A stretch of DNA of 64,000 nt from a virus: IMG/VR virus record IMGVR_UViG_3300025150_000006, positions 1 through 64,000 of that record. One strand, 5' to 3'. Numbering within the stretch: the first letter of the stretch is position 1; each line of letters begins with the position of its first letter. Of the stretch, positions 2,893-42,393 are shown piece by piece. The translations under genes were made by a program, and so were the position numbers. The notes beneath the pieces are model-generated. The model searched no databases, had not been told where the DNA came from, and saw nothing but the letters and a program-made list of their open reading frames with translations.

Positions 2893-3291
2893 TCAACCTC
2901 CCCACAACTGCCAGGCCAACCCGTTGAAGGCCAGGTGCATCAGATTGTCCGCGATGAACAGCAACCACAGGGTAAGCCACAGAGGCTTGTCCTTGTGGTA
3001 GCCAGTGGGCTGGCAGTCCTTCCACGGGAAACGCCAGCTCGAAGGGGCCAGTAGGTTCTTGGCCCACACCAGGTAGCGGGCCAACCGCCAGTGGTCGATG
3101 ACCAGGTGGGTTGCCCCAATCAGGATCAGGGGTTCCCACCTGGGCATCAACAGTGCGAACGGAAGGGTGTACAACGTCGCGTGTACAAGGGCTGGCCACC
3201 AGCGCTTCGTTTTCTCGTTGGCCATCCAGTCGCTCTGGGTGACATAGTCCCCGAGCACATGAAGCACCAGTAGCCAGTACCCTTCCATCAT
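2893..3291 (-). CDS. DUF3307-family membrane protein
   Basis: HVLGDYVTQSDWMA...H...THLVID...DNLMH and hydrophobic helices. Confidence 0.85.
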   Translation of the reverse strand: MMEGYWLLVLHVLGDYVTQSDWMANEKTKRWWPALVHATLYTLPFALLMPRWEPLILIGATHLVIDHWRLARYLVWAKNLLAPSSWRFPWKDCQPTGYHKDKPLWLTLWLLFIADNLMHLAFNGLAWQLWGG

Positions 3292-3298
3292 TGCTTCC

Positions 3299-5785
3299 TC
3301 AGTCCACGTCCAGCAGACCCTTGGCGACTTCGATCCCACGCTCGGTCGAGAAATGCTCGGCCTCCGTGAACACCCCCAGGAGCATACCCGTGCCGGGCAC
3401 CAGGTAGAACGTCCCCTCCTTCTCCGCCTTGGCGAGACTGATGGACGGGAACTTCTCGACGAGCTGGTCCGCCGTCAGGGCCTGCCCGAAGCTCTCCGGC
3501 ACGAGGCCGGTCGCCCCGACGTAGAACGCCAGCGGGGTGACGAACTTGGCGTACAGGTCGTCGATGGCCTTGTTCACAGCCTGGAGGGAGGACTTGAGCC
3601 AAGCCAGGGACTCGTCCTTGTCGTACCCGCCAGCCAGGAGGTCATCGATCTCCGGGGAGACGTAGGCCAGGGCCAGGGCCGCGTGCAGAGCACCTACGTC
3701 CCCGAGCCCAAGGAACCCGCTGTAGATCGGGAAGGTCAGGTCATCGACCGGGGTGAGCTTGGTACGGGCCGACAGGGCCTTGATCCCCCAGGTGTTCCCG
3801 TCCGCCCACCAGTCCTTGAGCGACGGCTTCTCCACCTCGGTGCCATCAGCCAGCTTCAGGGTGAACCGCCGCTGGAGGGCCGCATTGCCGCTGGCCAACT
3901 TGCCGAGGTTGGTGATCTCCGGGGTGCCGATCTTCACCTTGTAGGACAGGTAGGTATCCACCTCTCCCCGGTCCGTGGCCACCTTGAGGTCCGTGTAGGG
4001 CACGGTTGTCGGGGGGCTGAAGTACAGGGCCGGGGTGATGTAGCACTCCTTGAGTGCAGCCACCTGCTCAGAGGTCAGGGACTCGGACTCCCCCGCCGTC
4101 AGACCGGACAGGATCTTCTGGACGATGGTGAGCTGAGCCAGCTTCCAGAACAGATCCGCATCCAGATCGTCGAAAATCTGGTCGTAAGCCACCAGGGGCA
4201 TCGTGCTCAGGTCGATGTCGTACTGCTGCTCCGGGTTGAAATCTCCTGTTACGATGCCCATCTGCTTGAGGGCCGCGAAGCACCGCTTGTCACTCGTCTT
4301 GAGTGGCAAACTGGCGACGTTGACCTTGCCGTCTCCGACAAGGGTGTAGTTACGGAAGCTCTTGAGGTCGAGCTTGATCCCTGCGACCTCCTCGATCGAA
4401 CCGCCGGTCGTCAAATCGAGGAGCTTGCCATCCTCGACCAACCGGATGTTCGCCGTGGCGGTGTCCCGGTTGATGTCGATGCCCGAGACGGCCACAGCCG
4501 TGTTGTCCCGAGGAGTCTGGAGCTTGTGGGTCGGGGGGACGAGGTTGCCCGCATCATCACGAGAGCCAGCGATCTTCTTGAGACCACGACGGGTGTAGTT
4601 GGCACCCAGCTCCCTGGCGTTGACCCGCAGGCTGCTCTGGTACATCGAGAGCACCCGAAGCAACTCCAGCACGCTGGGGCCGGTCTCCCCGAGACCATAG
4701 CCGCCCTGGGTGACGATGAGGATCTTCTCGAACAGGTATTTCTCGATGTCAGCCGACATCGCAGCGACCTCGGAGGCCACCAGAGCCCGAGCGTGCCTCT
4801 TGATCAGAGGGGTGATCTGAGTGCTGACCATCGCGAACTTGGCGGCGTTCAGATTTCCCAGAGCGAGTTGAGCCCGGCAGAATGCCAGCAACGGTGTCAG
4901 GTCGGTGCTCTGGCCGTCGATGACCTCACCGCCCGCCAGGTTGTAGTTCGCCTCATCCACCTCCTGGTAGCGGTAGACGGTAGCATCATCGTCACCGGAG
5001 ATGCCACGGATGGTCAGGGACTCCGTCCCACCGAGCACCTTCTTGCCCTTCTGCGATACGAAGGTGATGAAGTCGAACTGACCGATGCCCGCTTCGATGA
5101 CCGGCGACATCTGGCCAGCGAGAAGGGTCTGCGTATCGTGCAGAGCCTTGTAGACCTCGCGGGCGTTGCTGGCCTGCATCGACTTGCCGCTCAGCCGGTT
5201 GGCGATGGCCGCGAGCAGGGCGAAGTCACAGTAGGACCGGTAGCCCACGGTGTTCACGAAGACGTTGGGGTGCTTCTCCAGCGCCTCGACCGCCTTCACG
5301 ATGTTCTGAGCCTCGGTGTAGGGACTCGGGTCGTTGGCGTAGCCATCGGTGTGGAGGGAGATGCAGGTGACCTCCTTGTCGTCGATGAGCTTCTCAGCCT
5401 GCACGAGCCCCTGGCTGATGCCCGTCATCCCACGAGTGCGGAGACCACGGATCTCGGAGAGATGGGGACTGTTCGGAGCCAGCACATCCTCGACGGTGAC
5501 GCGGCTGAAGTGGACGCGGCAGTCCCCGTTCGAGGCGTAGGTCAGGAAGCTGATCTTCATCGCGGGGTCGTTGAACTCCTCCGCTGTGAAAACCTTCTCG
5601 ATGATGTTCTTGACCGATTCGAGGTCACCCCACATCGAACCACTCACGTCGAGGATGGCGATGTGGTGGCTGGGGGAGACGACGGCCACCTTGGGGTCAG
5701 GCGTCACGTCCTCAGCTTCGACAGTGTAGAACCGGACAGGCTTGCCGGCATAGTTGTGCAGCGCGAACTTCATGTATCTCTCCAT
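3299..5785 (-). CDS. von Willebrand factor A domain protein (828 aa)
   Basis: MIDAS DVSGS...T...TDG in the N-terminal domain. Confidence 0.85.
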   Translation of the reverse strand: MERYMKFALHNYAGKPVRFYTVEAEDVTPDPKVAVVSPSHHIAILDVSGSMWGDLESVKNIIEKVFTAEEFNDPAMKISFLTYASNGDCRVHFSRVTVEDVLAPNSPHLSEIRGLRTRGMTGISQGLVQAEKLIDDKEVTCISLHTDGYANDPSPYTEAQNIVKAVEALEKHPNVFVNTVGYRSYCDFALLAAIANRLSGKSMQASNAREVYKALHDTQTLLAGQMSPVIEAGIGQFDFITFVSQKGKKVLGGTESLTIRGISGDDDATVYRYQEVDEANYNLAGGEVIDGQSTDLTPLLAFCRAQLALGNLNAAKFAMVSTQITPLIKRHARALVASEVAAMSADIEKYLFEKILIVTQGGYGLGETGPSVLELLRVLSMYQSSLRVNARELGANYTRRGLKKIAGSRDDAGNLVPPTHKLQTPRDNTAVAVSGIDINRDTATANIRLVEDGKLLDLTTGGSIEEVAGIKLDLKSFRNYTLVGDGKVNVASLPLKTSDKRCFAALKQMGIVTGDFNPEQQYDIDLSTMPLVAYDQIFDDLDADLFWKLAQLTIVQKILSGLTAGESESLTSEQVAALKECYITPALYFSPPTTVPYTDLKVATDRGEVDTYLSYKVKIGTPEITNLGKLASGNAALQRRFTLKLADGTEVEKPSLKDWWADGNTWGIKALSARTKLTPVDDLTFPIYSGFLGLGDVGALHAALALAYVSPEIDDLLAGGYDKDESLAWLKSSLQAVNKAIDDLYAKFVTPLAFYVGATGLVPESFGQALTADQLVEKFPSISLAKAEKEGTFYLVPGTGMLLGVFTEAEHFSTERGIEVAKGLLDVD

Positions 5786-7378: not shown

Positions 7379-7410
7379 GGGGCTCAACTCTGACCCCTCA
7401 CCCGTAGTAG
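7379..7410 (+). promoter_or_regulatory. Class I promoter-like motif
   Basis: GGGGCTCAA-N14-CCGTAGTAG. Confidence 0.8.
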
Positions 7411-7415
7411 GGTCA

Positions 7416-7860
7416 GAAGACAGAAGGTGCTCGGTAGCTGCCGAGCTAGTGAGGATGGCTCCTCATGAACAAGCGGAGTAGCGTTCGCACAACGGTAGGA
7501 AATCAACAGGCCACCCGTTAGGTAGCTGCTCAGTGGAGGACTTACCTGAGAAGCCCAGGGCTTCAGCCGGAGCCTTTGACGGGGGACAAAGTAAGGGGTG
7601 TCAGGTGGAGTCGATCGGGCTTCATCCCAGACTGTGAAGCCGGGCATCCTATCCCCCACCCATTGCTCTCTTTGGAGTCTCAACTGGGCGCTAGTGTTAA
7701 AGGCAACCGTCCACAAGGGCCGTGACTAAGCTCTAGGATAGAGTGCCCCACCCAACCGGAAGAGGTCTAGTCAACCAGAAGCCGGAAGGAGAAAACGCCC
7801 CCCTCACCCGGGGAAGTTCCAGGTGGAAGTCCTGGGCGTCCAGTTGAGCCCCCAAAGGGA
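7416..7860 (+). ncRNA. Putative structured ncRNA (~445 nt)
   Basis: No credible ORF; follows a class I motif; many hairpins plus long-range stem 7667-7691/7836-7860 whose G-U pairs work only on +. Confidence 0.55.
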
Positions 7861-7866
7861 CCCTTG

Positions 7867-8847
7867 CTACGAGAGCAATGAGGACAGCGAATGGGCATGG
7901 GAGAGCACCTCCGTAATGAGGGTACTCCCACCAATCACCGTTCCAAGAAAAACCAGGAAGTTTCTCGGGCTCAAGATGCCCTTACCAACTGCTGGGCCGA
8001 AGGCGCTGCGGATGCCGATGCCGTAGCGAGGCTGCTGCAAACCCCGGATGAATTTGACCGTCCGAGCTTTGGCTTCAGCCGCCTTGTCGAACTGACCCTC
8101 TGCATTGGACTTCAGCGACTCGTACTTGCTCGACTTGTCGATGCTCAGGCTCACGCCCCCAATCGAGTAGTCGAACTCCTCGTGGACCCAGTTGATGGCG
8201 AGAGCCATCAAGGCGTGGCTCATCGCCGCATAGTTGACGGCCATCGACCAGTCGGAGTTGCCTCTCAGCAAGCAGTTCAGATCACTGATGCCCGTGCGAG
8301 GTGGCATCATGTTCCACCAGCGCAACGCTTGATCCAGATAGACTTTCAACTCTTCATCGGTCCAGACGTAGCCGAAGATGCGGTTGTACTGCCCGATGTC
8401 ACACTCGTGCTCAGGTGGCCGGAAGTGGTAGTTCCGGTCTGGCGAATTATGTGAACAAATACAAGAGGTTGTGAGGATCAGGTTGTGGTTCCCTTCAACC
8501 GTCAGATCAAACATAAACTGACGGTCATCAATTTGAAGGACTGAAATCAAAGGGGTAACACGAACCTCACCCTCCCAAACCACAAGTACAGAGTCTCCGG
8601 GAACTAACGTTTCCGCATCCACAGCAAGATCAGGATTTGGGCTTCGGTATACTCGGTGCCCACCCGTAAAAACGGAAGAACCGAACTTTGTGGTTAGTTC
8701 CCAAATGGATTCCGGTCGAACATCCGCCCGGTGAACAGCCTGTACCTGCCGCCATTCCAATACACCCCCAGAAGATACGGACTGCACACGCAGTTCCCCT
8801 GCCCGGAATGCCTGACGCAATTGGTCTCGTTGAGCACTAGTGATCAT
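7867..8847 (-). CDS. Split-intein C-part (134 aa) fused to C-extein of a putative neck/head-completion protein
   Basis: Intein block B FTGGHRV, block F MFDLTVEGNHNL, block G CSHN|S; the extein resembles head-tail adaptor proteins (YSIGGVSLSID). Confidence 0.85.
   Translation of the reverse strand: MITSAQRDQLRQAFRAGELRVQSVSSGGVLEWRQVQAVHRADVRPESIWELTTKFGSSVFTGGHRVYRSPNPDLAVDAETLVPGDSVLVVWEGEVRVTPLISVLQIDDRQFMFDLTVEGNHNLILTTSCICSHNSPDRNYHFRPPEHECDIGQYNRIFGYVWTDEELKVYLDQALRWWNMMPPRTGISDLNCLLRGNSDWSMAVNYAAMSHALMALAINWVHEEFDYSIGGVSLSIDKSSKYESLKSNAEGQFDKAAEAKARTVKFIRGLQQPRYGIGIRSAFGPAVGKGILSPRNFLVFLGTVIGGSTLITEVLSHAHSLSSLLS
8446..8847 (-). mobile_element. IntC of an atypically split intein
   Basis: Begins with Met, no block A, ends HN followed by Ser+1. 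Confidence 0.85.
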
Positions 8848-9596
8848 AGCCCAAGATCCTCCTCAGTCCACACACAAAAGTGCCAGCCCCGTTGTTTAGC
8901 CTGATCTGCTGCAACCTTAAGACGTGTGATCTGCTTGTTGTTATTGCCGTAAGTGGGGTGATCCAGTACCCATTGTGGCTTGACTTCAATCAATTTCACC
9001 ACATTGTGGCTTAGAGTCACAACGAAGTCAGGGTAAATGCGTGCACCATCTTTCAAGACTAGTGGTGGCTCATACTGGTATGAAACCACAGAGGGGTCTG
9101 CATCTAGGAGGACCAAGGCCTGACGCTCATAGGTACTCCTAACCCGAAATTTCCCCTTCCGGTTGGAGCACTTCAGGGCAACTACCTCACACCAAATCCC
9201 TCGACCCCCACACTTCCCAAACTTGGATTTAGGGCTCTCTAAGAGAGAGTAAAATTTTCCACTTGCCCAATCCTCTCGAAGGCGTTTAGACAACCATGGC
9301 TTCTTTTCACCCGCTCTGGAGCGCCCCATCCGAGCTGCACTTTCCTGACGATTTTTCCGAGAAGCATCATTCCACATGGCCCCAGTGAGTCGCTGGATGG
9401 ATCCATTGGAAAGCCCTGTAATCTCGATCATCTCAGCCCAGGTACAACCAGATTCATGCAAGGTCGTCACGATAGCCGCCCGCTTATCCCTGACACCCAA
9501 TGGGGGTCGCCCCCTCTTTGAGAATGTATCCCAGTCGAGTTCCTGTGCCTTTAACAAGGGTGCCAATCGTGGGTGTGGTGTGCTCATGCCTAGCAA
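8844..9596 (-). CDS. Free-standing endonuclease: HTH plus TnsA-like PD-(D/E)xK domain
   Basis: RSTYE...YQYEP...YPDFVV...LIEVKP; lower GC; lies between the intein halves. Confidence 0.8.
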   Translation of the reverse strand: MLGMSTPHPRLAPLLKAQELDWDTFSKRGRPPLGVRDKRAAIVTTLHESGCTWAEMIEITGLSNGSIQRLTGAMWNDASRKNRQESAARMGRSRAGEKKPWLSKRLREDWASGKFYSLLESPKSKFGKCGGRGIWCEVVALKCSNRKGKFRVRSTYERQALVLLDADPSVVSYQYEPPLVLKDGARIYPDFVVTLSHNVVKLIEVKPQWVLDHPTYGNNNKQITRLKVAADQAKQRGWHFCVWTEEDLGL

Positions 9597-9634
9597 TACC
9601 TATAGGATAGATATTGTCTGGGAATAAGAGCATT

Positions 9635-10138
9635 CTACACTGGGCTCAAGTCGTGAAGGGTCTCCCAGAGATCATCCATGCGAACGACCATCCTTTCCCC
9701 ATCAACATCCAGTTCAACTGTTTCCTCAGCCCCCACGCAGTTGTCGCGGAGCATGACCCGCAACGTGCTGATCATCTCCAGCTCCTCTGCGGAGTAGATG
9801 CTGGAGATGGTAGACGCCGTGGACACCACCGCGAACTCTTGGACCACCTGCATCTGCGGGGTCCCAATCTGCTCACGGATGGTCCAACGGATGCGGTACG
9901 TCCCGATGGTGGCGTTCGCCGGCACCATCAGGGCAGCGTAGAACTCCCCCACCGCAGGGTTCACAGGCGTCCGGTCGGCTGACCCAATCAGCACTTCCAC
10001 TTCGGGTGGACCGGGATCCAGGAAATAGAGGCTGTAGGTGATCTCAGCCGGGTTGATGGGGACGTTGCTACTGTTCTTGAGGAAGATGTCCAGGTCCCCC
10101 CGAGCAACCTCCTGACCGGGATAGAAGGCGACGGCCAT
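9635..10138 (-). CDS. N-extein (133 aa) of putative neck protein fused to a 34-aa IntN
   Basis: ...LRDN|CVGAEETVELDVDGERMVVRMDDLWETLHDLSPV* matches intein block A, then a stop. Confidence 0.85.
   Translation of the reverse strand: MAVAFYPGQEVARGDLDIFLKNSSNVPINPAEITYSLYFLDPGPPEVEVLIGSADRTPVNPAVGEFYAALMVPANATIGTYRIRWTIREQIGTPQMQVVQEFAVVSTASTISSIYSAEELEMISTLRVMLRDNCVGAEETVELDVDGERMVVRMDDLWETLHDLSPV
9638..9739 (-). mobile_element. IntN of an atypically split intein (34 aa, acidic)
   Basis: Cys1, CxxxxTxV block A pattern, then xxDL helix. Confidence 0.8.
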
Positions 10139-11202: not shown

Positions 11203-12144
11203 TCAGAGAGGAACACCCAGGTGGTTGTAGACCCCGATGGCAGGGCCGATGCCAGTGGCCGCGATGGCGGTCACTCCATCCGCCGCCCATGCACGAGGAC
11301 GCCAGGCCGTGACGGCACCTGCGGAGTAGGCGAACTCCCGACGCAACAGTGTGATGTTGCCCTTGTACCCAGCGATGACGCCCGCTCCGTTCGAGATGTT
11401 GAACGCTCCCGTGGGGACCAGTGTCGGGCGGCTCCGGTATCCAGGCTCACCGGGCTCCAGGAACCCACCAGAGGCGTAGAACTGCCCCTGAGCGGCCACC
11501 ATTGCGGGGGTCTGTGCAGCCACGAGCGCCTGTCGCGCTGCCAGATCCAGGAACTGGTCTGCCGCGTTCCCGATGATCGTGTTGGCCGGAAGACGGTAGA
11601 TCTCCCCGGACAGGATTCGCAGGATGTCAGATACGGTGCCGAAAGACTTGTTCGTTCCCCCAGCCGTCAGCGAGTTGGATGTGAACGGAGGAACCTGATC
11701 CAACTCAATGTTGATCTGAGCTTCTGTCAGCGTCGCGCCCGCCATCACCCTCACGAGGAGGTTGGTGTTCATCCAGTTGCAGGATCCAAACGCAAACTGC
11801 GACCCGTTGGCATCCACATCCCCATTGTCATGGATGCGGTCCTTGAAGTACGCCGCCAACCCAAAGGTGGTCGTCGTGGTAGCCACACAGTCGTTGCCAC
11901 CACCGGTGGTGTCCGCTACAACAGCATCCGCCGTGAGGGTGGTGTTCAGTGAACCACTGATGTAGGAGATCCCGTTGACCACGGTGGTCCCGGCGGGATC
12001 CAGGGACTCTGCAACGTACACGTTCTGCGGTGTACCTTCGTAGATGCTGTTCCTCTGCCCGGCGTTGGGACGCAGGTCACCGAGGTTGAGCCCCACGCCG
12101 GCTAGGTCGTTCCGCAGGGGGATGATGAAGACTCGATCAGCCAT
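11203..12144 (-). CDS. Virion structural protein, paralog family A (1 of 3)
   Basis: Shared N-terminal LxxxDLxPNxxQxN, central GTxxxxLxxLxGxxY and C-terminal VYxxxG with neighbours. Confidence 0.75.
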   Translation of the reverse strand: MADRVFIIPLRNDLAGVGLNLGDLRPNAGQRNSIYEGTPQNVYVAESLDPAGTTVVNGISYISGSLNTTLTADAVVADTTGGGNDCVATTTTTFGLAAYFKDRIHDNGDVDANGSQFAFGSCNWMNTNLLVRVMAGATLTEAQINIELDQVPPFTSNSLTAGGTNKSFGTVSDILRILSGEIYRLPANTIIGNAADQFLDLAARQALVAAQTPAMVAAQGQFYASGGFLEPGEPGYRSRPTLVPTGAFNISNGAGVIAGYKGNITLLRREFAYSAGAVTAWRPRAWAADGVTAIAATGIGPAIGVYNHLGVPL

Positions 12145-12159
12145 TGTGAAACTCCTAAA

Positions 12160-13059
12160 TCAGATGACGTTGCCGAGGGCATCGTACACGGTGACAGCTC
12201 GGCCAGCGCCGCCTGCGAGGATGTTGCCCAACCCGATGGTCAAGGCCGTACCCGCTGCCCCATAGGTGAAAGCGGGGTTCTCAAACGCGAAGGTGGCCGC
12301 CTTGAGGTCAGCCAGGACACCATTCGTTGCCGACAGATGCAGGTCACCAGCATCGACGAGCTGCCGCACGTCGTTGAAGTTCGTGTCCTGGAGCCCAGTC
12401 TGCACGGGAGCCACCAGCGGGTCACCAGGGCGGAGGTAGGCCGGGGGAGCGTTGAATTTGCGCCCCCGCACTGCACCGTAGACACCCTCGACGCTCTGTG
12501 GCAGCTCCACGTTCGCACGGGCCACGAACGCCCCACGACGAGCACCGATGAAGTTCGGGACACCGTCCTCCAGAACTGCCGCCGCAGGCACACGGTAGCG
12601 CTCACCCGCCAGGATGCGGAGGATCTCCTCCACGGTGCCCGTCGAGTTGCCGGCCGTCAGGGACGAACCTGCACCGATACGAGCGGCGAGGATGGCGTTG
12701 ATCTCCACCGAGGTCAACGCCGTACCCGCTGCAACCGCAGCCTCGATGTCACCGGAAGCCAGGATCGCGTTGGCAGCCGTAGCTGCACGAGCGCCCACCT
12801 GGTTCTCGATGGTGTCGATGAGGTACGCCGACAGACCATAGGCATCCGCCGCCACCCCCGTGGTGATCGGGGGGCCTGCTGCCGTCGTGATGGGAAGGTT
12901 GACCCCATCGATCAGGTAGAAGGTCTGGTATCCCGTCTGACCCGAGTTCTGCCCGCTGAGGATAGGGTTGAGTTGGGACGTGTTTGGTTGCAGGTCCAGC
13001 ACCTGGAGCAGGCTGTCGTCCAGGTCATTCCGGGCGAGTACAATGTAAGCGCGGGCCAT
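12160..13059 (-). CDS. Virion structural protein, paralog family A (2 of 3)
   Basis: LQVLDLQPNTSQLN...GTVEEILRILAGERY...AVTVYDALG. Confidence 0.75.
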   Translation of the reverse strand: MARAYIVLARNDLDDSLLQVLDLQPNTSQLNPILSGQNSGQTGYQTFYLIDGVNLPITTAAGPPITTGVAADAYGLSAYLIDTIENQVGARAATAANAILASGDIEAAVAAGTALTSVEINAILAARIGAGSSLTAGNSTGTVEEILRILAGERYRVPAAAVLEDGVPNFIGARRGAFVARANVELPQSVEGVYGAVRGRKFNAPPAYLRPGDPLVAPVQTGLQDTNFNDVRQLVDAGDLHLSATNGVLADLKAATFAFENPAFTYGAAGTALTIGLGNILAGGAGRAVTVYDALGNVI

Positions 13060-26904: not shown

Positions 26905-27777
26905 TCAGCGGGTGACCGTCAGACGAGCCAACCCACGGGGGTTGTAGGCTCCGAGGCCCAAATTTTCAAAAATCGAGAAACCAATCATCCGGCGCTTCGG
27001 GTCGTCGGCCGAGAGGACGGTCAGCTCGGTACGGACGGGGATCCGACCGAACATCTCGGGCTCACAGCAGAGGTAGACCGTACCGTTGGGGACGAGACGG
27101 CTGGTGACGACGTTGGCACCGTAGATCACACCCTGGAGACCGGTCTTGAGCAGGGTTGCCTGGGACTCGATGTCGAGGATGTCGCGGCCGAACTTGCGGA
27201 TGTCCGCGTAGTCCCTGGCGTTCATGTAGATGCGGGCGACCCGGAGGTCATGCCGCTCGATGAGCGCGAAGGCATCCGCGAGGACCGCACCCGAGATGGG
27301 GGCGATGACCGGGATGTCGGCGTTGAGCTGACCGGGGAGGCTGTCGAAACCGGCAGTGGCCACGGAGTCGAGAACGGCGAACACTCGCTCGTCCTCAGCG
27401 GCCTGGATCTGCGCACGCCCGAGGTCCTGGGACCGCTCGATGAGATCGAAACGGCGCTCCTTGATCTGGGTGAGCGGGATCTCCGGGTTCGAGGCGATCT
27501 CGAACAGCGGGAAGATGACACGACGGGGCTTCGTGACGGCGAGGATATTCTGACCCTCTTCGCCGACCACGTATGCCGTGACGTCGGGGTCCTTGTCGTA
27601 GATCGGCAGCGCGCCGTCGGGGAGCTGCTCGACCAGGAAGGTCTTGCGGCCCACGGCGGCGTAGTCGCGACGAGTACGCAGGGGCTGTGTCATCGAGGCA
27701 GCGAGCTTCGCACGACCCTGGGGGGTCTTGATGTACTCGCCGATGATCTTCTGCTTGACAGCGTTGGTGACACTCAT
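26905..27777 (-). CDS. Major capsid protein (HK97-like fold)
   Basis: 290 aa, GAGGAGG SD, extreme codon bias, strong terminator; spine helix (DLIERSQ...IQAAEDERVF) and YGANVVTSRLVP. Confidence 0.85.
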   Translation of the reverse strand: MSVTNAVKQKIIGEYIKTPQGRAKLAASMTQPLRTRRDYAAVGRKTFLVEQLPDGALPIYDKDPDVTAYVVGEEGQNILAVTKPRRVIFPLFEIASNPEIPLTQIKERRFDLIERSQDLGRAQIQAAEDERVFAVLDSVATAGFDSLPGQLNADIPVIAPISGAVLADAFALIERHDLRVARIYMNARDYADIRKFGRDILDIESQATLLKTGLQGVIYGANVVTSRLVPNGTVYLCCEPEMFGRIPVRTELTVLSADDPKRRMIGFSIFENLGLGAYNPRGLARLTVTR

Positions 27778-27790
27778 GACGGTGACCTCC

Positions 27791-28429
27791 TCAGATCCGC
27801 TGGTCGTAGACCAGGTCGCCTTGGGTTGCATCGGGGGCCATCTTCACGATGCCGATGACAGTGGGCTGGAGGTTCTGCACCGTGGCAGCGTGGATGTCCC
27901 CCTGCTCCCAGAGCTGAGCATTGGAGTTGGCATCGTCGGCCGCGAGGGCGTTGGTGAGGTAGCCGTTCTTCGAGGCGAAGAGCTTCTGGCCGACGTTGTA
28001 CGCCGTCAGAGCCACACCGTCGGCGAGCGACTTGTCCTCAAACAGCGTGTTGCCGAACGTACCCTGACCCGAGACGTATGGGTTCTTGCCCGAGGCCGTA
28101 CCCGGCGTGTTCTCGAACGCATTGCCGTTCGCGCTGTTGATGAAGACACCGAGGATGCCGACGTTGCCTGTGCCAACGGCCGGAGGTCCACCGATGAAGT
28201 TGCTGCCGCCGCCTGCATCGCCGCGAGCAAAACAGACCGAGCCGCTCAGAACGCCCGAAAGCGTCTGATCGACCTGAGCCGTGATTGCCGTGGCCACCTG
28301 GGGTGGGTTCGTCTGAGTGAAGGCATCATCGGTCAGCACGCCTACTGAGTTCGCAATCCCGAGGTTCAGGATCCGCAGCGCGCTGCTCGACTCCGTCCAT
28401 CCACCGCTTGCCTGTCCGAGCAAAGGCAT
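27791..28429 (-). CDS. Putative capsid decoration/cement protein
   Basis: Between scaffold and MCP; G/T/N-rich beta protein. Confidence 0.6.
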   Translation of the reverse strand: MPLLGQASGGWTESSSALRILNLGIANSVGVLTDDAFTQTNPPQVATAITAQVDQTLSGVLSGSVCFARGDAGGGSNFIGGPPAVGTGNVGILGVFINSANGNAFENTPGTASGKNPYVSGQGTFGNTLFEDKSLADGVALTAYNVGQKLFASKNGYLTNALAADDANSNAQLWEQGDIHAATVQNLQPTVIGIVKMAPDATQGDLVYDQRI

Positions 28430-28655: not shown

Positions 28656-30269
28656 TCAGGAGAACGAGCCGCTCACGTCGGGGTCGGAGGCCCAGAGGTT
28701 CGACAACTCGTGGATGTCACCGTTGGCCGAGGCGGCCTTGGAGCGGACAGCACCGACGGTCTTGACGCCCTTGCTGGCCTTCTTGGGCTGGGGCTTGAGG
28801 ATGCTGGCCAGGCGAGCGCTGGCCTCCTTGTCGGAGTCCCCACCCTCGTCGTCGGCGTCCTCATCGTCCGACCCGAAGACCTCACGGAAGGCGGCCTCAT
28901 CGGCGGCAGTCAGGTTGGTCCCGTCTGCCAGACCCATCGGGTCGAACCCGGTGGCGAAGAAGTGAGCATCGGCCTCCTTGTCGGAGCCGTCCTCATCATC
29001 CTCGTCCTCGTCCTCGTCGTCCGAAGCCTTCTTCTTGCCGGCCTCGACACCCTCATCGTCGTCATCGTCGGCGTCGGGCTCGTCCTCAGCCTTCTTGGCG
29101 GCCTTCTTGGCCTGGGCGGCCTTCAGGACCATCAGGGCCTTCTTGGCGGCCTTCTTGGCGGCCTCGACCTCGGCATCCGCGTCGTCCTCGTCCTCATCGT
29201 CGTCGGCCTTCTTGGCCTTCTTGCCGGCGACCTCGACGTCATCCTCATCCTCGTCGTCCGAGGCCTGAACACGCATCGCGGCGAGCATCTCCATCTCGTC
29301 ATCGTCGAACTCGTCGCCCATCAGGTCGTCGCCGCAGGCTTCCTTGTCGGAGCCCTCGTCCTTCTTCTTCTCGCAGTTGTCACGAAGCGCCTCGGGGAGC
29401 TTCTCGCAGCCGGCGAGGACCTCGTGGCGAGCGATGATGCCGTCACGGTCGGTGTCCATCGAGGCGAACATGGCACGGGGGCCACCCCAGTCCTCGGCGG
29501 TCACGAAGCCGTCGCCATCGCTGTCGAAGGCATCGAACATCGCCATCACGGGGTTGGCGGCCTTGTCGTTGATGTTCGAGATGGCCTTCTCTTCCGCCTT
29601 CTCCTGCTCAGCCGTCTCGCCAGAAGCACCGATGGTCTGACCATTCGGGTCGTTCTGGCTGGCTGCGGCACGGAGTGCCTTCAGCTCGCTCTCCATCGCG
29701 GAGAGACGGGCCATCAGACCCTCCGTCCCGTCGTCGAGATCCATGTCCATCCCGTCGTCGAGACCCATGTCCATCCCGTCGTCGGGGAACATCCCCATCA
29801 GCTCGTCCTCCATCCCCATGAAGTCCCCACCGAGACGCCCGATGCTGGCGTCGAGAGCGGAGTCGTCCATGGACATGAACCCGAAGGCCTGGTCCTCGAT
29901 GGCATCCCAGGACGCCTTACGACCGTTGGACGTGAGGGTGGCCTTGGCGAGCACGAGGGCCTTCGCCGACTTGCGACGGACCATCTCCATGAGGCTGGCC
30001 TGGCGACCGACCTGACCCTGGTGGGCCGGGTGATCCTGGTCCTCGACCCCGTAGCCGGGAATCGCGGGCGGGCCGCTGTCCCCGTAAGGGCCGGGGTGGA
30101 CGTCCTCGGCGAACTCGGACGGGCCTCCGATCATGTACGGGGCCGAACCCGGGTCATCCTGATCATGAGCCGGGTGATCCTGGTCCTCAACTCCGTAGCC
30201 GGGAAGTGCGGGGGGTGCAGCCGCCTTGCGGTCAAGGGCTGCCCACGTCATGCGCTGACGAATGCTCAT
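28656..30269 (-). CDS. Putative scaffolding protein with an EF-hand pair
   Basis: Between protease and MCP; acidic low complexity; loops DSDGDGFVTAED and DTDRDGIIARHE. Confidence 0.7.
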   Translation of the reverse strand: MSIRQRMTWAALDRKAAAPPALPGYGVEDQDHPAHDQDDPGSAPYMIGGPSEFAEDVHPGPYGDSGPPAIPGYGVEDQDHPAHQGQVGRQASLMEMVRRKSAKALVLAKATLTSNGRKASWDAIEDQAFGFMSMDDSALDASIGRLGGDFMGMEDELMGMFPDDGMDMGLDDGMDMDLDDGTEGLMARLSAMESELKALRAAASQNDPNGQTIGASGETAEQEKAEEKAISNINDKAANPVMAMFDAFDSDGDGFVTAEDWGGPRAMFASMDTDRDGIIARHEVLAGCEKLPEALRDNCEKKKDEGSDKEACGDDLMGDEFDDDEMEMLAAMRVQASDDEDEDDVEVAGKKAKKADDDEDEDDADAEVEAAKKAAKKALMVLKAAQAKKAAKKAEDEPDADDDDDEGVEAGKKKASDDEDEDEDDEDGSDKEADAHFFATGFDPMGLADGTNLTAADEAAFREVFGSDDEDADDEGGDSDKEASARLASILKPQPKKASKGVKTVGAVRSKAASANGDIHELSNLWASDPDVSGSFS

Positions 30270-31774
30270 TGCATGTCTCCTTTGATGTGGCGACTGCCAG
30301 GTGAAACTTGAAACCCACTTCGAGCCTGGCCTCGCCGTGAGATGAGCTTGCCGAGCCTGATAAGAACTCTTGCTTCGGCGGTGGTGGGCTTACGGCCGAG
30401 AGCCGCCTGACAAGCCCGTGCAAACTGATTCAACGACTCGTAGCCCTGAACGGACCCCAGTCGAAGAGCAGTCCGGTACAGGGGCACGGGGATAGACACC
30501 CCGTACTCCTGGTTCAGCAGTGCAACCTTGTCGAGCAGAGCCACATCACTGGATGCGGTCCGGCAGAGGAAACCCAGGGTGGCCCCATACACGAGATTGT
30601 GCTCGCTGGGCACCAGGTCATCCATCTCTGCTTGCTTGACCAGATTGTCGTTGGGAGCCGTTGCGGCATCCTCGGGACCAAGGGCCTCATCAAGGTCCTT
30701 CTGGTCCATGTCCTTCTTGAGCTTCTTTCGCACCCGGTCTTTCAGGTGTGTCTCAAGCTCTTCCTCAACGTCCTCGAAAGGACCCTTCTTGGGCTCTTCC
30801 CTGGCAGGGGCTGCATCATCAGCCGGAGCATCTTCTTCGTCACCCCAACCAGCCATGAAAGAGTCACCATTGCCAAAGGCAATGGCTGCGGCCTTACGGC
30901 GCTGTCCCTTGGTCCACTGCTCGGGAGGGGTCTGGAGGATGACCGAAGCTGCTTTGCCCAGATCATCTCCCTTGTGGATGGCAAGAATGTTCCGAAGCAC
31001 TGCACCAGTGAACGCCGGGGTTCCTACCCACGATGCCTCGATGAACTGATTGCCACCGGTGGGGTCCAGGCTAGGATGCCCGCACAGCTCCGCGACCCGA
31101 TGCTGCCGACCCTGCTCGTCGAAGAAGGTGTTGCCCTTCTCGTATTTGATGTGGGGACACATCTCGGTCTCGTCCGCTGCCCAGTGCCCGCACTTGGTGC
31201 AGATGGTGCCATCGACAGTGCAGCCCATGGACAGGGTGCTCATCTTGCCGGACTCGATGGCCTCTACCAGGTCCTCGTGCTTCCGGTCCGTCGCGATGAG
31301 GATGTCCACATAGACCGTGTCACCGAGGTCTCGGGCCACTGCATCAATGATGCGTCCCTTGCTCAGCTCCTCGACCTGGACGTGCTCGACGAAATTGTGC
31401 CCACCGATGAAGGTCCGGTAGCTCTTGAGCAGAACATCCCGGTCCCAAGCATCGAGGTTGTTGTTGATGTACTTGTCAGCACCGAGCTTGACCCGGAAAT
31501 TGCCAAACTTCCGATTGACCCGGAACCCACCCTCCATCACCGACCCGAGCTTCGCATTGGGTGGGGCGTAGGTATCCACCGATGCAACGATGGTCACATG
31601 GGTGAGTAGGTAGTCCTTCGGGACGAAAAGCTTTCCAAAAATCTCGGATGCCCGGTCGATGAGGTTCTCACTGACCTCTGCCGATGCCTTGGCTGCTTTG
31701 CGGACCTTGGCCCAGCCGGACCCGTTGACGTTGGGCGTTTGGATGGAGCCCCTGGCGAACTTCAAAAAAGCCAT
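30266..31774 (-). CDS. Putative prohead maturation protease with a Zn finger
   Basis: NFVEH...KGRIIDA...TLSMGC, CTKCG...CPH, FIEASWV..PAF; canonical position. Confidence 0.7.
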   Translation of the reverse strand: MAFLKFARGSIQTPNVNGSGWAKVRKAAKASAEVSENLIDRASEIFGKLFVPKDYLLTHVTIVASVDTYAPPNAKLGSVMEGGFRVNRKFGNFRVKLGADKYINNNLDAWDRDVLLKSYRTFIGGHNFVEHVQVEELSKGRIIDAVARDLGDTVYVDILIATDRKHEDLVEAIESGKMSTLSMGCTVDGTICTKCGHWAADETEMCPHIKYEKGNTFFDEQGRQHRVAELCGHPSLDPTGGNQFIEASWVGTPAFTGAVLRNILAIHKGDDLGKAASVILQTPPEQWTKGQRRKAAAIAFGNGDSFMAGWGDEEDAPADDAAPAREEPKKGPFEDVEEELETHLKDRVRKKLKKDMDQKDLDEALGPEDAATAPNDNLVKQAEMDDLVPSEHNLVYGATLGFLCRTASSDVALLDKVALLNQEYGVSIPVPLYRTALRLGSVQGYESLNQFARACQAALGRKPTTAEARVLIRLGKLISRRGQARSGFQVSPGSRHIKGDMQ

Positions 31775-39881: not shown

Positions 39882-40699
39882 CCGCCTAGAACCTGAAAAG
39901 CACCCTCATCCTCCGAAACATCTTGCAGGCGGGATTCCGCCACACCCGTCCAGTGAGGATCACGGTCCACACCCCGGAAAGACATCCCCTCAAGAATTGC
40001 AGCTTCACCTGTAGTGCCAGACCCACAAAAAGGGTCTACGACCACCCCTCCAGGAGGGCACACCACCCGAACCAGTTGCCGCATCCAACCCACCGTTTTC
40101 TCGGCGGGATGGTCGTGCTTGTGTTTTGAGACTGGGAACCCCTCAAACAGGTGAGACAACCGAGGTTCCCCCACCTGCATGTACCCCACCCCCCATTGTT
40201 CGTGGTTAGCCTTCGAGGATTGCTGTGTCCCCGGCTTACGAGCCAGCACCCACAGTTCTGTTTCCTGTACAAGCTGGGTAGACAATCCACCATCGACCAA
40301 AGGGGATTTGGGCCTACGGCGATGCAGACGACGGATCAGGATGTCAATGGTAGGGAGACCTGCACGTTCCAGGCCCTCCATCAGCCAATGGAGGCTGGAC
40401 TGGAAACCCCAAAACACCCCATAGCCACCCGGCTTCAACACCCGGCTACATTGTTCAAGTACAGGATAAACCTGTTTCTCAAAACCAGGACGCATCGCCA
40501 AATGAGTCCGATGATGGGTTTGAAAATTGGCTCGTGTCCGGTTAGTGGGGGAATCCCAACCGAGGTAACGTGAATCCCCGCCCCCGAAAGGAACCATCAT
40601 ATTCCGACCAGAGGGCGGATCGGTAACAATGGCATCAGCACTGTTGTCTGGCCACGAACCCATCACATCAGCCGCATCCCCCAGACTCACATCATACAT
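39857..40699 (-). CDS. DNA N6-A/N4-C methyltransferase (beta class)
   Basis: IVTDPPS, HPAEKT, DPFCGSGTT. Confidence 0.85.
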   Translation of the reverse strand: MYDVSLGDAADVMGSWPDNSADAIVTDPPSGRNMMVPFGGGDSRYLGWDSPTNRTRANFQTHHRTHLAMRPGFEKQVYPVLEQCSRVLKPGGYGVFWGFQSSLHWLMEGLERAGLPTIDILIRRLHRRRPKSPLVDGGLSTQLVQETELWVLARKPGTQQSSKANHEQWGVGYMQVGEPRLSHLFEGFPVSKHKHDHPAEKTVGWMRQLVRVVCPPGGVVVDPFCGSGTTGEAAILEGMSFRGVDRDPHWTGVAESRLQDVSEDEGAFQVLGGCSPMRSP

Positions 40700-42393
40700 C
40701 AGAACCGACCCTCGCCCTCAACCTTGGGCTTCGTGTACTTGAGGCCCAGGTACTCAGCAATCTTCGCCGTGAAGTCCGTGTTCTCCGCGAGACCATCACC
40801 AACCCTGGTGTAGAGGCCTCGAAGGATCTCGTTGAACGTCGCGTCCTGGAACGTACCGAAGTCTCGTGCCAGCTTCTCGCGAATCGTGATGGGGTCGAGG
40901 TTGAGATGTTCGAGGATGGTGTCGATGTCGAGGGACCCCTTCTGGTAGAGGTTCATCAGAGCATCGAAGGTCTCGGTGTTGTCACGGAAGGAGAGCCTGG
41001 TGAACGAGAGGTGCGGGACGATGACCTGAAGGACACCATCCTCATCCTCCTCAACGAACCCCATCCGCAGACACATCGGCCGGAAGAACTGGTCCTCGAC
41101 CAGTTCTTGCAGAGTCTCCCGCATCAGCATAAACCTGGTGTTGATGACCTCCAGGTTGATGCGGTCTCCCGAGTAGCTGGACTCACCCGACAACAGACTC
41201 TCGGTCACGCCCAGGCCGGCATACATATGCCGGTCGGTCATGTCGAAGACCCAACTCCAGTCAGGCAGCCGCTGGTCCGCACCCATCTCCTCCCAGGTGA
41301 CCTGGAAGTTGGTGATGATCGAGAAGTCCGGGTCTTGCAGAGCAAGGTCAACCTGCTCTCGCAAGTCCTCCGTCTGCTCAGCGTTCATGTCCTCGGCGTA
41401 GATCAACCGGTAGGGCGTCATGTGCCGGGAAGCGATCGAAGTCAGTGATTGTCGGACCTTGTCGCGGAACACCAGTGTTCGGAGGCACCGTTCGAGGATG
41501 CTCTTGCCCCGTGGCTCGTACTGGGACTTCTTCCGGGCCATGTTGTAGTAGAAGGAACCGGCCTCGGGGTCCGTGTTGAGAGGGACGTTCATCCCCTCTG
41601 AGATAGCGGCCACCACATCTTGTGGCATCGAGTTCACGATGCGGATGGCGTTGGGGTCACCGGACTGGGCTCGATTGAAGATAGCCTTCGTCTTCGAGTC
41701 CGGGATCAGCTCGACCAGCTTCTCCTCGGTGAAGGGGAAGCTCTCGATGTGAATCTGCTCCGGGGGCAGGGTCCGCACCGCAGACCAACCCTTGTAGTTC
41801 TTCTTGAGCCAAGCGACGGCCCGCTCCTTGGCGTCCTCCCGAACGACCTTCCTCTCAACGACCTCGCCCTCCTTGGTGATCTCCCGAACGACCTCGTACT
41901 CGACCGTGTCGGGCATGTCGTCGGAGGTGTCCTCACAGAAGATATGGGCCTCACCAAGCAGGTTCCACTCGTGACTGATCTCCATCAGCCGGTGAAGGAG
42001 ACCCACCCGCTTCGCCCAGTTCTCACAGAACCGGAGAGCCGCAGCCGCCAACTTCTCGTTCTTCGCTGCGGGTTTACGAAGCCGTACCTTGGACAAGGGA
42101 AGCTCGTCGAGCAGGTCGATGGCCTGCCCCACGAAGGGGTCGTGGTCGTAGAAGAAGCGGAAATAGTTGCGCTTCTCGTCATCGGACTGGGGCAGCTCCA
42201 GGAAGTCCGTGGACAGCTCGGGGGAGTAGAAGTTGCCTCCGGCACCCATGGAGGTGTTGCCACCTCCGCCTGCCAGGGAAGCCGCCCGCATCGAAGAAGT
42301 GAGGATCTTGGTGGGCTTTCCCACGGTCACACCCGCACGCTCCGCAATCTTGCGGACCACAATGGTGCTGTCAGGGTCATTCGTCCTAGCCAT
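40699..42393 (-). CDS. Portal protein
   Basis: 564 aa between TerL and head genes; FYDHDPFVGQAID and RGKSILERC portal-like motifs. Confidence 0.8.
   Translation of the reverse strand: MARTNDPDSTIVVRKIAERAGVTVGKPTKILTSSMRAASLAGGGGNTSMGAGGNFYSPELSTDFLELPQSDDEKRNYFRFFYDHDPFVGQAIDLLDELPLSKVRLRKPAAKNEKLAAAALRFCENWAKRVGLLHRLMEISHEWNLLGEAHIFCEDTSDDMPDTVEYEVVREITKEGEVVERKVVREDAKERAVAWLKKNYKGWSAVRTLPPEQIHIESFPFTEEKLVELIPDSKTKAIFNRAQSGDPNAIRIVNSMPQDVVAAISEGMNVPLNTDPEAGSFYYNMARKKSQYEPRGKSILERCLRTLVFRDKVRQSLTSIASRHMTPYRLIYAEDMNAEQTEDLREQVDLALQDPDFSIITNFQVTWEEMGADQRLPDWSWVFDMTDRHMYAGLGVTESLLSGESSYSGDRINLEVINTRFMLMRETLQELVEDQFFRPMCLRMGFVEEDEDGVLQVIVPHLSFTRLSFRDNTETFDALMNLYQKGSLDIDTILEHLNLDPITIREKLARDFGTFQDATFNEILRGLYTRVGDGLAENTDFTAKIAEYLGLKYTKPKVEGEGRF

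Follow-up and report, generated by a model that had tools for sequence, protein, structure and literature searches.

A probable fractured adaptor-like gene of a huge phage, with an atypically split intein around a free-standing TnsA-like endonuclease gene

Background

Can a virion gene be broken in two by a mobile element and its halves be rejoined as proteins? The question is raised by three consecutive open reading frames (ORFs) at positions 7867-10138 on the minus strand of a stretch of viral DNA, i.e., the first 64,000 nucleotides of the IMG/VR record IMGVR_UViG_3300025150_000006 (hereafter the window). A preliminary description of the window read the two outer ORFs as the halves of a structural-protein gene, each carrying one part of a split intein (a 34-residue N-terminal part, IntN, and a 134-residue C-terminal part, IntC), and the middle ORF as a free-standing TnsA-like endonuclease gene.

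Fractured genes with split inteins were reported by Dassa et al. in 2009 (PMC2677866) for eight DNA synthesis, repair or packaging enzymes, mainly of phages, where the accompanying nucleases are of the GIY-YIG or Vsr-like type. Among split inteins, a class with a short IntN (about 15-37 residues) is distinguished (PMC13014065). AceL-TerL (25-residue IntN and 104-residue IntC) and GOS-TerL (37 and 115 residues) are atypical split inteins that break after the first helix, a site called "S2", while VidaL and PolB16 break at "S1" (PMC11766414, PMC13014065). These four make up the few natural short-IntN split inteins, and further candidates are lacking according to a 2026 paper (PMC13014065). A short IntN that can be synthesized is wanted for protein semisynthesis and labeling.

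We propose herein, with a probability of roughly 85%, that the window contains a fractured adaptor-like gene of a huge phage, which was invaded by a cassette of an intein and a free-standing endonuclease and whose halves splice in trans. Uninterrupted homologs fix the site of insertion to the residue, and the intervening pieces belong to an intein of which unsplit forms exist in nature.

Results and Discussion

Uninterrupted homologs define the insertion site

All three ORFs lie on the minus strand, and their coordinates agreed to the base with those of the preliminary description. The N-fragment ORF (9635-10138) encodes 167 residues, of which 133 form the N-extein (9740-10138) and 34 form IntN (9638-9739); its stop codon is at 9635-9637. 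The C-fragment ORF (7867-8847) encodes 326 residues, with the 134-residue IntC (8446-8847) followed by a 192-residue C-extein (7867-8445 including the stop codon; coding part, 7870-8445). Between them lies the endonuclease gene (8844-9587; 247 residues). Phage LR745208.1 (uncultured; 485 kb) has the same layout, as do about 12 contigs of IMG/VR. As this layout recurs in many independent contigs, it is not due to chance, and a sequencing or assembly artifact is likewise ruled out.

A search of the C-extein against 5.8 billion proteins retrieved 1,029 relatives, and the best 120 of the 1,029 were sorted by what they carry at the N-terminus. Ninety of these 120 are uninterrupted proteins of about 297-326 residues, in which residues 1-133 match the N-extein and the match to the C-extein starts at the very next residue. 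Their junction reads Arg-Asp-(Asn/Gln), followed mostly by Asn-Pro-Asp. Another 28, the window's own protein included, start instead with a homolog of the 134-residue IntC; in the 27 further clusters, IntC is 31-68% identical to that of the window. The residue at position +1 is Ser or Cys in every one of the 28 IntC-bearing alleles (Ser in the window), versus only three of the 90 empty alleles, where Asn prevails (72/90). Exteins that abut directly, together with a Ser or Cys at +1 in the IntC-bearing alleles, mark a site of intein insertion at which a +1 nucleophile is required. Thus, the exteins meet exactly at the point that had been predicted, and the predicted joined product of 133 + 192 = 325 residues with the junction RDN-SPD has its match in the contiguous homologs. 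The closest empty allele in IMG/VR is L011 (L-numbers denote database loci, mainly from IMG/VR; L001 is LR745208.1). It is 78% and 86% identical to the window in the N- and C-exteins, respectively, and aligns with residues 1-133 of the former and 1-164 of the latter back to back. Removal of the intein, as judged from L011 and the 90 contiguous homologs, leaves a conserved, uninterrupted host protein.

The intervening pieces are the two parts of one intein

IntN begins with Cys right after the extein residues Arg-Asp-Asn, and Cys is also the first residue in all nine IntN sequences compared. At nine related loci, IntN is 30-34 residues long and carries a net charge of -5 to -9. As described previously, IntN of the window has only block A and contains ten acidic and two basic residues, and the C-fragment ORF shows block B (Thr-x-x-His), a terminal His-Asn and then Ser; block F (Asp) lies between B and the His-Asn of block G. 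Thr61, His64, Asp114 and Asn134 occur in all 26 IntC sequences compared. A profile built from 26 IntC-bearing proteins matched solved inteins over profile positions 26-132 (E from 3.6e-10 to 1e-2), the best being Methanocaldococcus KlbA (2jmz; E 3.6e-10), followed by Pyrococcus RadA (4e2u; E 3.8e-6) and the Spl DnaX mini-intein (7cfv; E 2.8e-5), with weaker matches to the PolII, TFIIB, NrdJ-1 and CDC21 inteins. These matches begin 34-68 residues into the solved inteins, so that the part missing from IntC is precisely the N-terminal one that IntN would contribute.

An unsplit form of the same intein occurs at the same site in L006, L008 and L016, where a single ORF of 460-480 residues contains a mini-intein of 154-177 residues. 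The allele of L008 passes the cut-off of the Intein_splicing family PF14890 (36.8 versus 35.8 bits) with matches at both ends. A sequence search of the Protein Data Bank (PDB) with one of the unsplit inteins gave nothing useful. With the profile matches to solved inteins and the L008 allele above the Pfam cut-off, the intervening pieces in the window are those of an intein.

Alignment of the unsplit alleles places the window's break in a short variable linker between a conserved acidic stretch and the conserved segment that follows. A short helix-like stretch may lie between block A and the break. Over its first 45 residues, IntC is basic (median net charge, +3) and hence complementary to IntN, with its net charge of -8 in the window; this arrangement fits the charge-driven association of split inteins (PMC13014065).

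At 34 and 134 residues in separate genes, the intein falls within the size range of the short-IntN class (IntC of more than 100 residues). It resembles AceL-TerL and GOS-TerL, as described in the literature, in having a short acidic IntN with Cys1, consisting of block A plus a short segment, and a long IntC with blocks B, F and G. It differs from the TerL inteins in its host protein, its longer IntC, its pairing of Cys1 with Ser+1, and the natural existence of unsplit alleles.

Both intein halves are under purifying selection

The ratio of nonsynonymous to synonymous substitution rates (dN/dS) was calculated for the pair L005/L007, and the rough estimates were 0.06 for IntN, 0.11 for IntC, and 0.10 and 0.07 for the exteins. 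In L005, the nuclease gene is reduced to a 28-residue remnant (3874-3957), and in L007, it is replaced by an HNH nuclease gene (3172-4008; PF01844, E 2e-9) at the same split point. Selection therefore acts on the intein halves themselves, both of which are under purifying selection.

These values bear on the possibility that the gene was broken by insertion of the nuclease and is now decaying, its function being supplied from elsewhere. Nuclease genes do decay in relatives, as the remnant in L005 and a copy in L083 that is frameshifted into two ORFs illustrate, and only 24% of the window's genome is in hand (CheckV estimate for the 105-kb contig), such that an intact second copy could lie elsewhere. 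Against such decay, all three ORFs are open, the exteins of the window are 60-87% identical to intact homologs and keep every invariant residue, dN/dS is about 0.1 for exteins and intein halves alike in related split loci, and no second copy of the host gene was found on the 105-kb contig. A dead gene is thus highly improbable.

Maintained intein halves might nonetheless have given up splicing and serve only to hold the two fragments together non-covalently. A precedent is the nuclease-split NrdA of Aeromonas phage Aeh1, which is reported to assemble without splicing (PMC3045599), and in many members of the present family, the penultimate His of block G is replaced by Ser, Gly or Lys. The window, however, keeps His-Asn, and no split allele has lost Cys1, Thr-x-x-His, the Asp of block F, the final Asn or the Ser/Cys at +1. 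Empty alleles, by contrast, mostly carry Asn at +1, and such a pattern would be expected only of an intein whose chemistry is in use. Loss of splicing is therefore improbable, and joining of the exteins by trans-splicing is the reading we prefer.

One contig bears directly on action in trans. In IMGVR_UViG_3300009687_000006 (L032/L085), the two halves lie 67 kb apart on opposite strands, at about 61.6 and 130 kb, with both intein parts intact. The N-fragment is in its usual place and encodes 163 residues, including a 30-residue IntN, and the block of nuclease, IntC and C-extein is the distant part. If the assembly of this contig is right and not chimeric, the halves can meet only as proteins.

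The TnsA-like nuclease was found only at this site

The C-terminal half of the nuclease matches PF08722 above its cut-off (E 7e-8; 33.4 versus 26.5 bits), and the catalytic E, D and E-x-K residues (Glu154, Asp187, Glu201 and Lys203) are invariant in seven orthologs and intact in the window's copy, in agreement with the TnsA-like assignment made earlier. The seven orthologs share an N-terminal helix-turn-helix (HTH)-like region, a variable middle and a PD-(D/E)xK core; a PDB sequence search with the nuclease yielded nothing useful. The gene had also been described as richer in A+T than its surroundings and as overlapping the start of IntC. Indeed, the cassette from IntN to IntC (1,294 nucleotides) has a G+C content of 50.8%, compared to 59.8% for the window and 57.5-61.4% for the exteins, and the stop codon of the nuclease gene and the start codon of IntC overlap by four bases. 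The nuclease ORF is open from a TTG at 9596 as well (8844-9596; 250 residues); the ATG at 9587, where relatives also start, is the more likely initiation site.

A pattern scan of IMG/VR recovered 13 homologs of the nuclease, all of which adjoin the IntC of an adaptor-like gene. The N-fragment stands beside the nuclease in 11 of them, is 67 kb away in one (L087, identical to L032), and is cut off at the contig's end in one (L090). This distribution bears on whether the middle gene is, as we suppose, a selfish homing nuclease, or whether it is not, or not only, of that kind but a head-completion nuclease akin to the TnsA-like homologs of T4 gp4 that happens to be lodged here. The latter idea draws on a match of the core to phrog_218, annotated "head closure" (E 8e-12), which arises because jumbo phages possess virion-associated, TnsA-like head-completion nucleases (PMC7824862). 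It also draws on complete relatives, in which a separate TnsA-like gene at another place has a core that shares 30-38% identity with that of the cassette nuclease. Only the catalytic core is common to the two, however, and the N-terminal HTH-like region is unmatched in other TnsA-like genes. Moreover, no homolog of the nuclease was found within 4 kb of about 65 empty-allele loci, and the gene is absent from the unsplit alleles, replaced in L007, a remnant in L005 and frameshifted in L083. We consider a head-completion role unlikely.

The homing interpretation is consistent with the phylogenetic distribution of the cassette. In a tree of the C-extein (113 rows; the 164 residues shared by all), intein-bearing alleles are scattered among near-identical exteins. 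The intein label changes 23 times on this tree, at least 12 of the changes being forced by well-supported branches, and the mean upon shuffling is 25.5; one pair with identical exteins differs in the presence of the intein. Together with the foreign base composition, this scatter gives the appearance of a cassette that is actively moving or often lost. Cleavage by the nuclease and homing of the cassette would account for such movement.

Like TnsA of Tn7 and the T4 gp4-like nucleases of jumbo phages (PMC7824862), the protein has a PD-(D/E)xK core with conserved E, D and E-x-K. Unlike them, it sits inside an intein, has a DNA-binding-like N-terminal region of its own, and occurs only with split alleles of the intein.

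Near the fractured gene of L001, two more nuclease-like ORFs flank it on the minus strand (4570-5694 and 643-2076). That on the upstream side shows a PD-(D/E)xK-like motif but matches no Pfam family; its downstream counterpart matches DUF7487 and contains a zinc finger of the Ros/MucR-like type. Mobile nuclease genes seem to have accumulated here.

The host protein resembles head-to-tail adaptors

What kind of protein does the cassette interrupt? Pfam and PHROGs searches with both extein-bearing ORFs and eight neighbors returned no family for the host protein, and a PDB sequence search with the host profile gave nothing useful. An AlphaFold model of a contiguous homolog, P0006 (predicted local distance difference test [pLDDT], 73), consists of an Ig-like beta sandwich (residues 1-105), a helix, and then a helical C-terminal domain, with the junction region (134-157) poorly modeled though highly conserved. 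The N-extein of the window accordingly corresponds to the Ig-like domain plus one helix, and the C-extein, starting with Ser+1, to the helical, adaptor-like domain and a conserved Gly-rich tail. With the whole-protein model, Foldseek retrieved mainly generic Ig-like domains and, weakly, the portal-adaptor chain 8gtd_M (E 5e-3), and VIA-align found only the Ig-like N-domain, which matched generic macroglobulin and Ig domains. For this reason, the C-extein was modeled alone (pLDDT, 74).

When this model was compared by VIA-align with 48,161 representative chains, the top 13 rows were all phage adaptor or neck chains of portal-tail structures, with moderate Z-scores of 6.8-9.0 and 80-110 aligned residues. 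The first was 9nwi_A (Z, 9.0; root-mean-square deviation [rmsd], 3.7 Å; 92 residues), and the others included 9lu4_D of the T4 gp13-gp14 neck (Z, 8.6), 8jov_G, 9k09_d, 7y22_X, 7z47_A and 8q01_b. Foldseek matched the C-extein model in BFVD only to gp165 of phage G, whose function is unknown. Despite the modest single scores, chance is an unlikely explanation for 13 consecutive adaptor or neck chains heading the list. In its helical core, the model superposes on such chains, for example those of the T4 gp13-gp14 neck (9lu4), Pa223 (9nwi), GP4 (8jov) and SU10 (7z47), with Z-scores of 7-9 and rmsds of 2.2-5.8 Å over 80-102 residues. It differs from these neck and adaptor proteins in that there is no match at the sequence level and that the host protein has an extra N-terminal Ig-like domain, and helical folds can match by their arrangement alone.

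Two observations outside the model point in the same direction. A contiguous homolog, gp319 of Tunturiibacter phage Tunturi_5, is annotated as a head-tail connector, and the adaptor-like gene is on the same strand as the genes for the major head protein (26905-27831), the protease (30266-31774) and the portal (40699-42393). Taken together, the fold of the C-extein, the Tunturi_5 annotation and the shared strand suggest that the host protein is probably a head-to-tail adaptor or neck protein. The earlier reading of the locus as a virion gene is thus likely to be right, with support from fold, annotation and strand and none from sequence families.

In the window, the last 28 codons of the C-extein (7870-7953) encode a hydrophobic extension that about two-thirds of the homologs lack and about one-third have in a similar form; in the model, it is part of a long C-terminal helix (160-191). 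Upstream of the N-fragment are two adjacent minus-strand ORFs of about 300 codons each (11203-12144 and 12160-13059), which have similar N-termini, look paralogous, and match no family. A homolog of this pair lies directly 5' of the N-fragment in L085 (571-1500), and the pair probably represents conserved structural genes beside the adaptor. Farther away, a minus-strand ORF of 828 codons (3299-5785) has a von Willebrand factor A domain at its N-terminus (PF00092; E 5e-5) and matches phrog_2426, a family of unknown function.

A model for expression, splicing and spread

In the model that we favor, the nuclease gene lies within the reading frame of the intein, in the loop after block A and its putative short helix-like stretch, a position that would give rise to the unequal 34/134 split. 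The three genes are probably co-transcribed. The N-fragment stop codon and the nuclease start are separated by an AT-rich spacer of 47 nucleotides (9588-9634, minus strand; 38% G+C), and a scan for promoters and terminators around the nuclease gene gave nothing above chance. A purine-rich, Shine-Dalgarno-like run (8857-8864, minus strand) lies within the last codons of the nuclease gene, nine nucleotides 5' of the IntC start codon, and is encoded by a conserved Thr-Glu-Glu motif near the nuclease C-terminus. The overlap of the nuclease stop and IntC start codons was found not only in the window but also in L012, L013 and L015. The overlapping codons and the purine-rich run suggest translational coupling between the nuclease gene and the C-fragment, which might perhaps provide a timing step in neck assembly.

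Once both fragments are made, the acidic IntN would bind the basic N-terminal part of IntC and thereby complete the HINT fold. Class 1 splicing, for which Cys1, Thr-x-x-His, Asp, His-Asn and Ser+1 are in place, would then join the exteins into a protein of 325 residues, the intein halves being discarded, and the product would presumably enter the virion. The nuclease, in turn, would spread the cassette by cleaving alleles of co-infecting relatives that lack the intein or the nuclease gene.

Several points weigh against this model. The window's own IntC stays below the threshold of PF14890 (E 3e-4; 21.1 bits, cut-off 35.8). The substitution ratios of L005/L007 are imprecise, as dS is near saturation, and the incompleteness of the genome, mentioned above, leaves room for a second copy. 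As for the host protein, Z-scores of 7-9 can be reached by chance for helical domains, and Foldseek with the C-extein model against the PDB found nothing at E below 1.

A broader and more tentative proposal concerns the origin of short-IntN inteins. The adaptor gene may represent a natural time series, with unsplit, nuclease-split, HNH-swapped and nuclease-decayed alleles and, finally, halves that are 67 kb apart. Short-IntN splits might on this account arise from insertion of a free-standing nuclease gene into the loop after block A, rather than from loss of an internal nuclease domain, and the split might be kept because the host protein has come to depend on it. We regard this course of events as possible but doubtful.

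Relation to known fractured genes

The locus shares with the fractured genes of Dassa et al., in particular the terminase locus, the adjacent halves on the same strand, the split-intein ends, and the free-standing nuclease ORF in between. It differs from them in its host, an adaptor-like structural protein, and in its nuclease, which is of the TnsA-like type (PF08722). That a structural host is unusual, as the preliminary description supposed, accords with the enzymes listed in the 2009 study (PMC2677866). In the open-access literature searched, we found no intein in an adaptor or neck gene, no TnsA-like nuclease in a fractured gene, and no split intein in huge phages besides a PolB case in phage MIJ3. 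Relative to that literature, the novelty lies in the host protein and the nuclease family; the layout and the type of split are known.

If the assignments hold, fractured genes extend from DNA enzymes to a virion assembly protein, and the TnsA-like type is the third nuclease fold family in their cassettes. Also new here are the intermediate forms (unsplit, with the nuclease replaced or decayed, and with dispersed halves), the extein tree, the estimate of selection, and a nuclease clade recovered only at this site. The locus is part of a large and diverse short-IntN family, whose natural unsplit counterparts offer matched cis/trans pairs for the study of association and splicing.

Further insertions and minor features

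A second site in the C-extein, at the conserved Asp-Glu-Phe / Asp-Tyr-Ser sequence, is occupied in some relatives. In L072 (2622-6346; IMGVR_UViG_3300009514_000001), two short-IntN split inteins divide the adaptor gene into three. The one at this second site has Ser1, Ser+1 and a 33-residue IntN; a DUF559/Vsr-like nuclease gene (PF04480) separates its halves, and here, too, stop and start codons overlap. PolB16 is said to be the only known source of natural short-IntN split inteins that lack catalytic cysteines (PMC13014065). L083 (3953-5401) carries an unsplit intein at the second site, and L093/L094 and L096 have an insert there too.

Just 3' of the C-fragment, the region 7379-7860 of the window is poor in ORFs and was earlier noted as a candidate non-coding RNA. 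Past the stop codon of the C-fragment, at 7798-7816 of the minus strand, there is a weak terminator-like hairpin.

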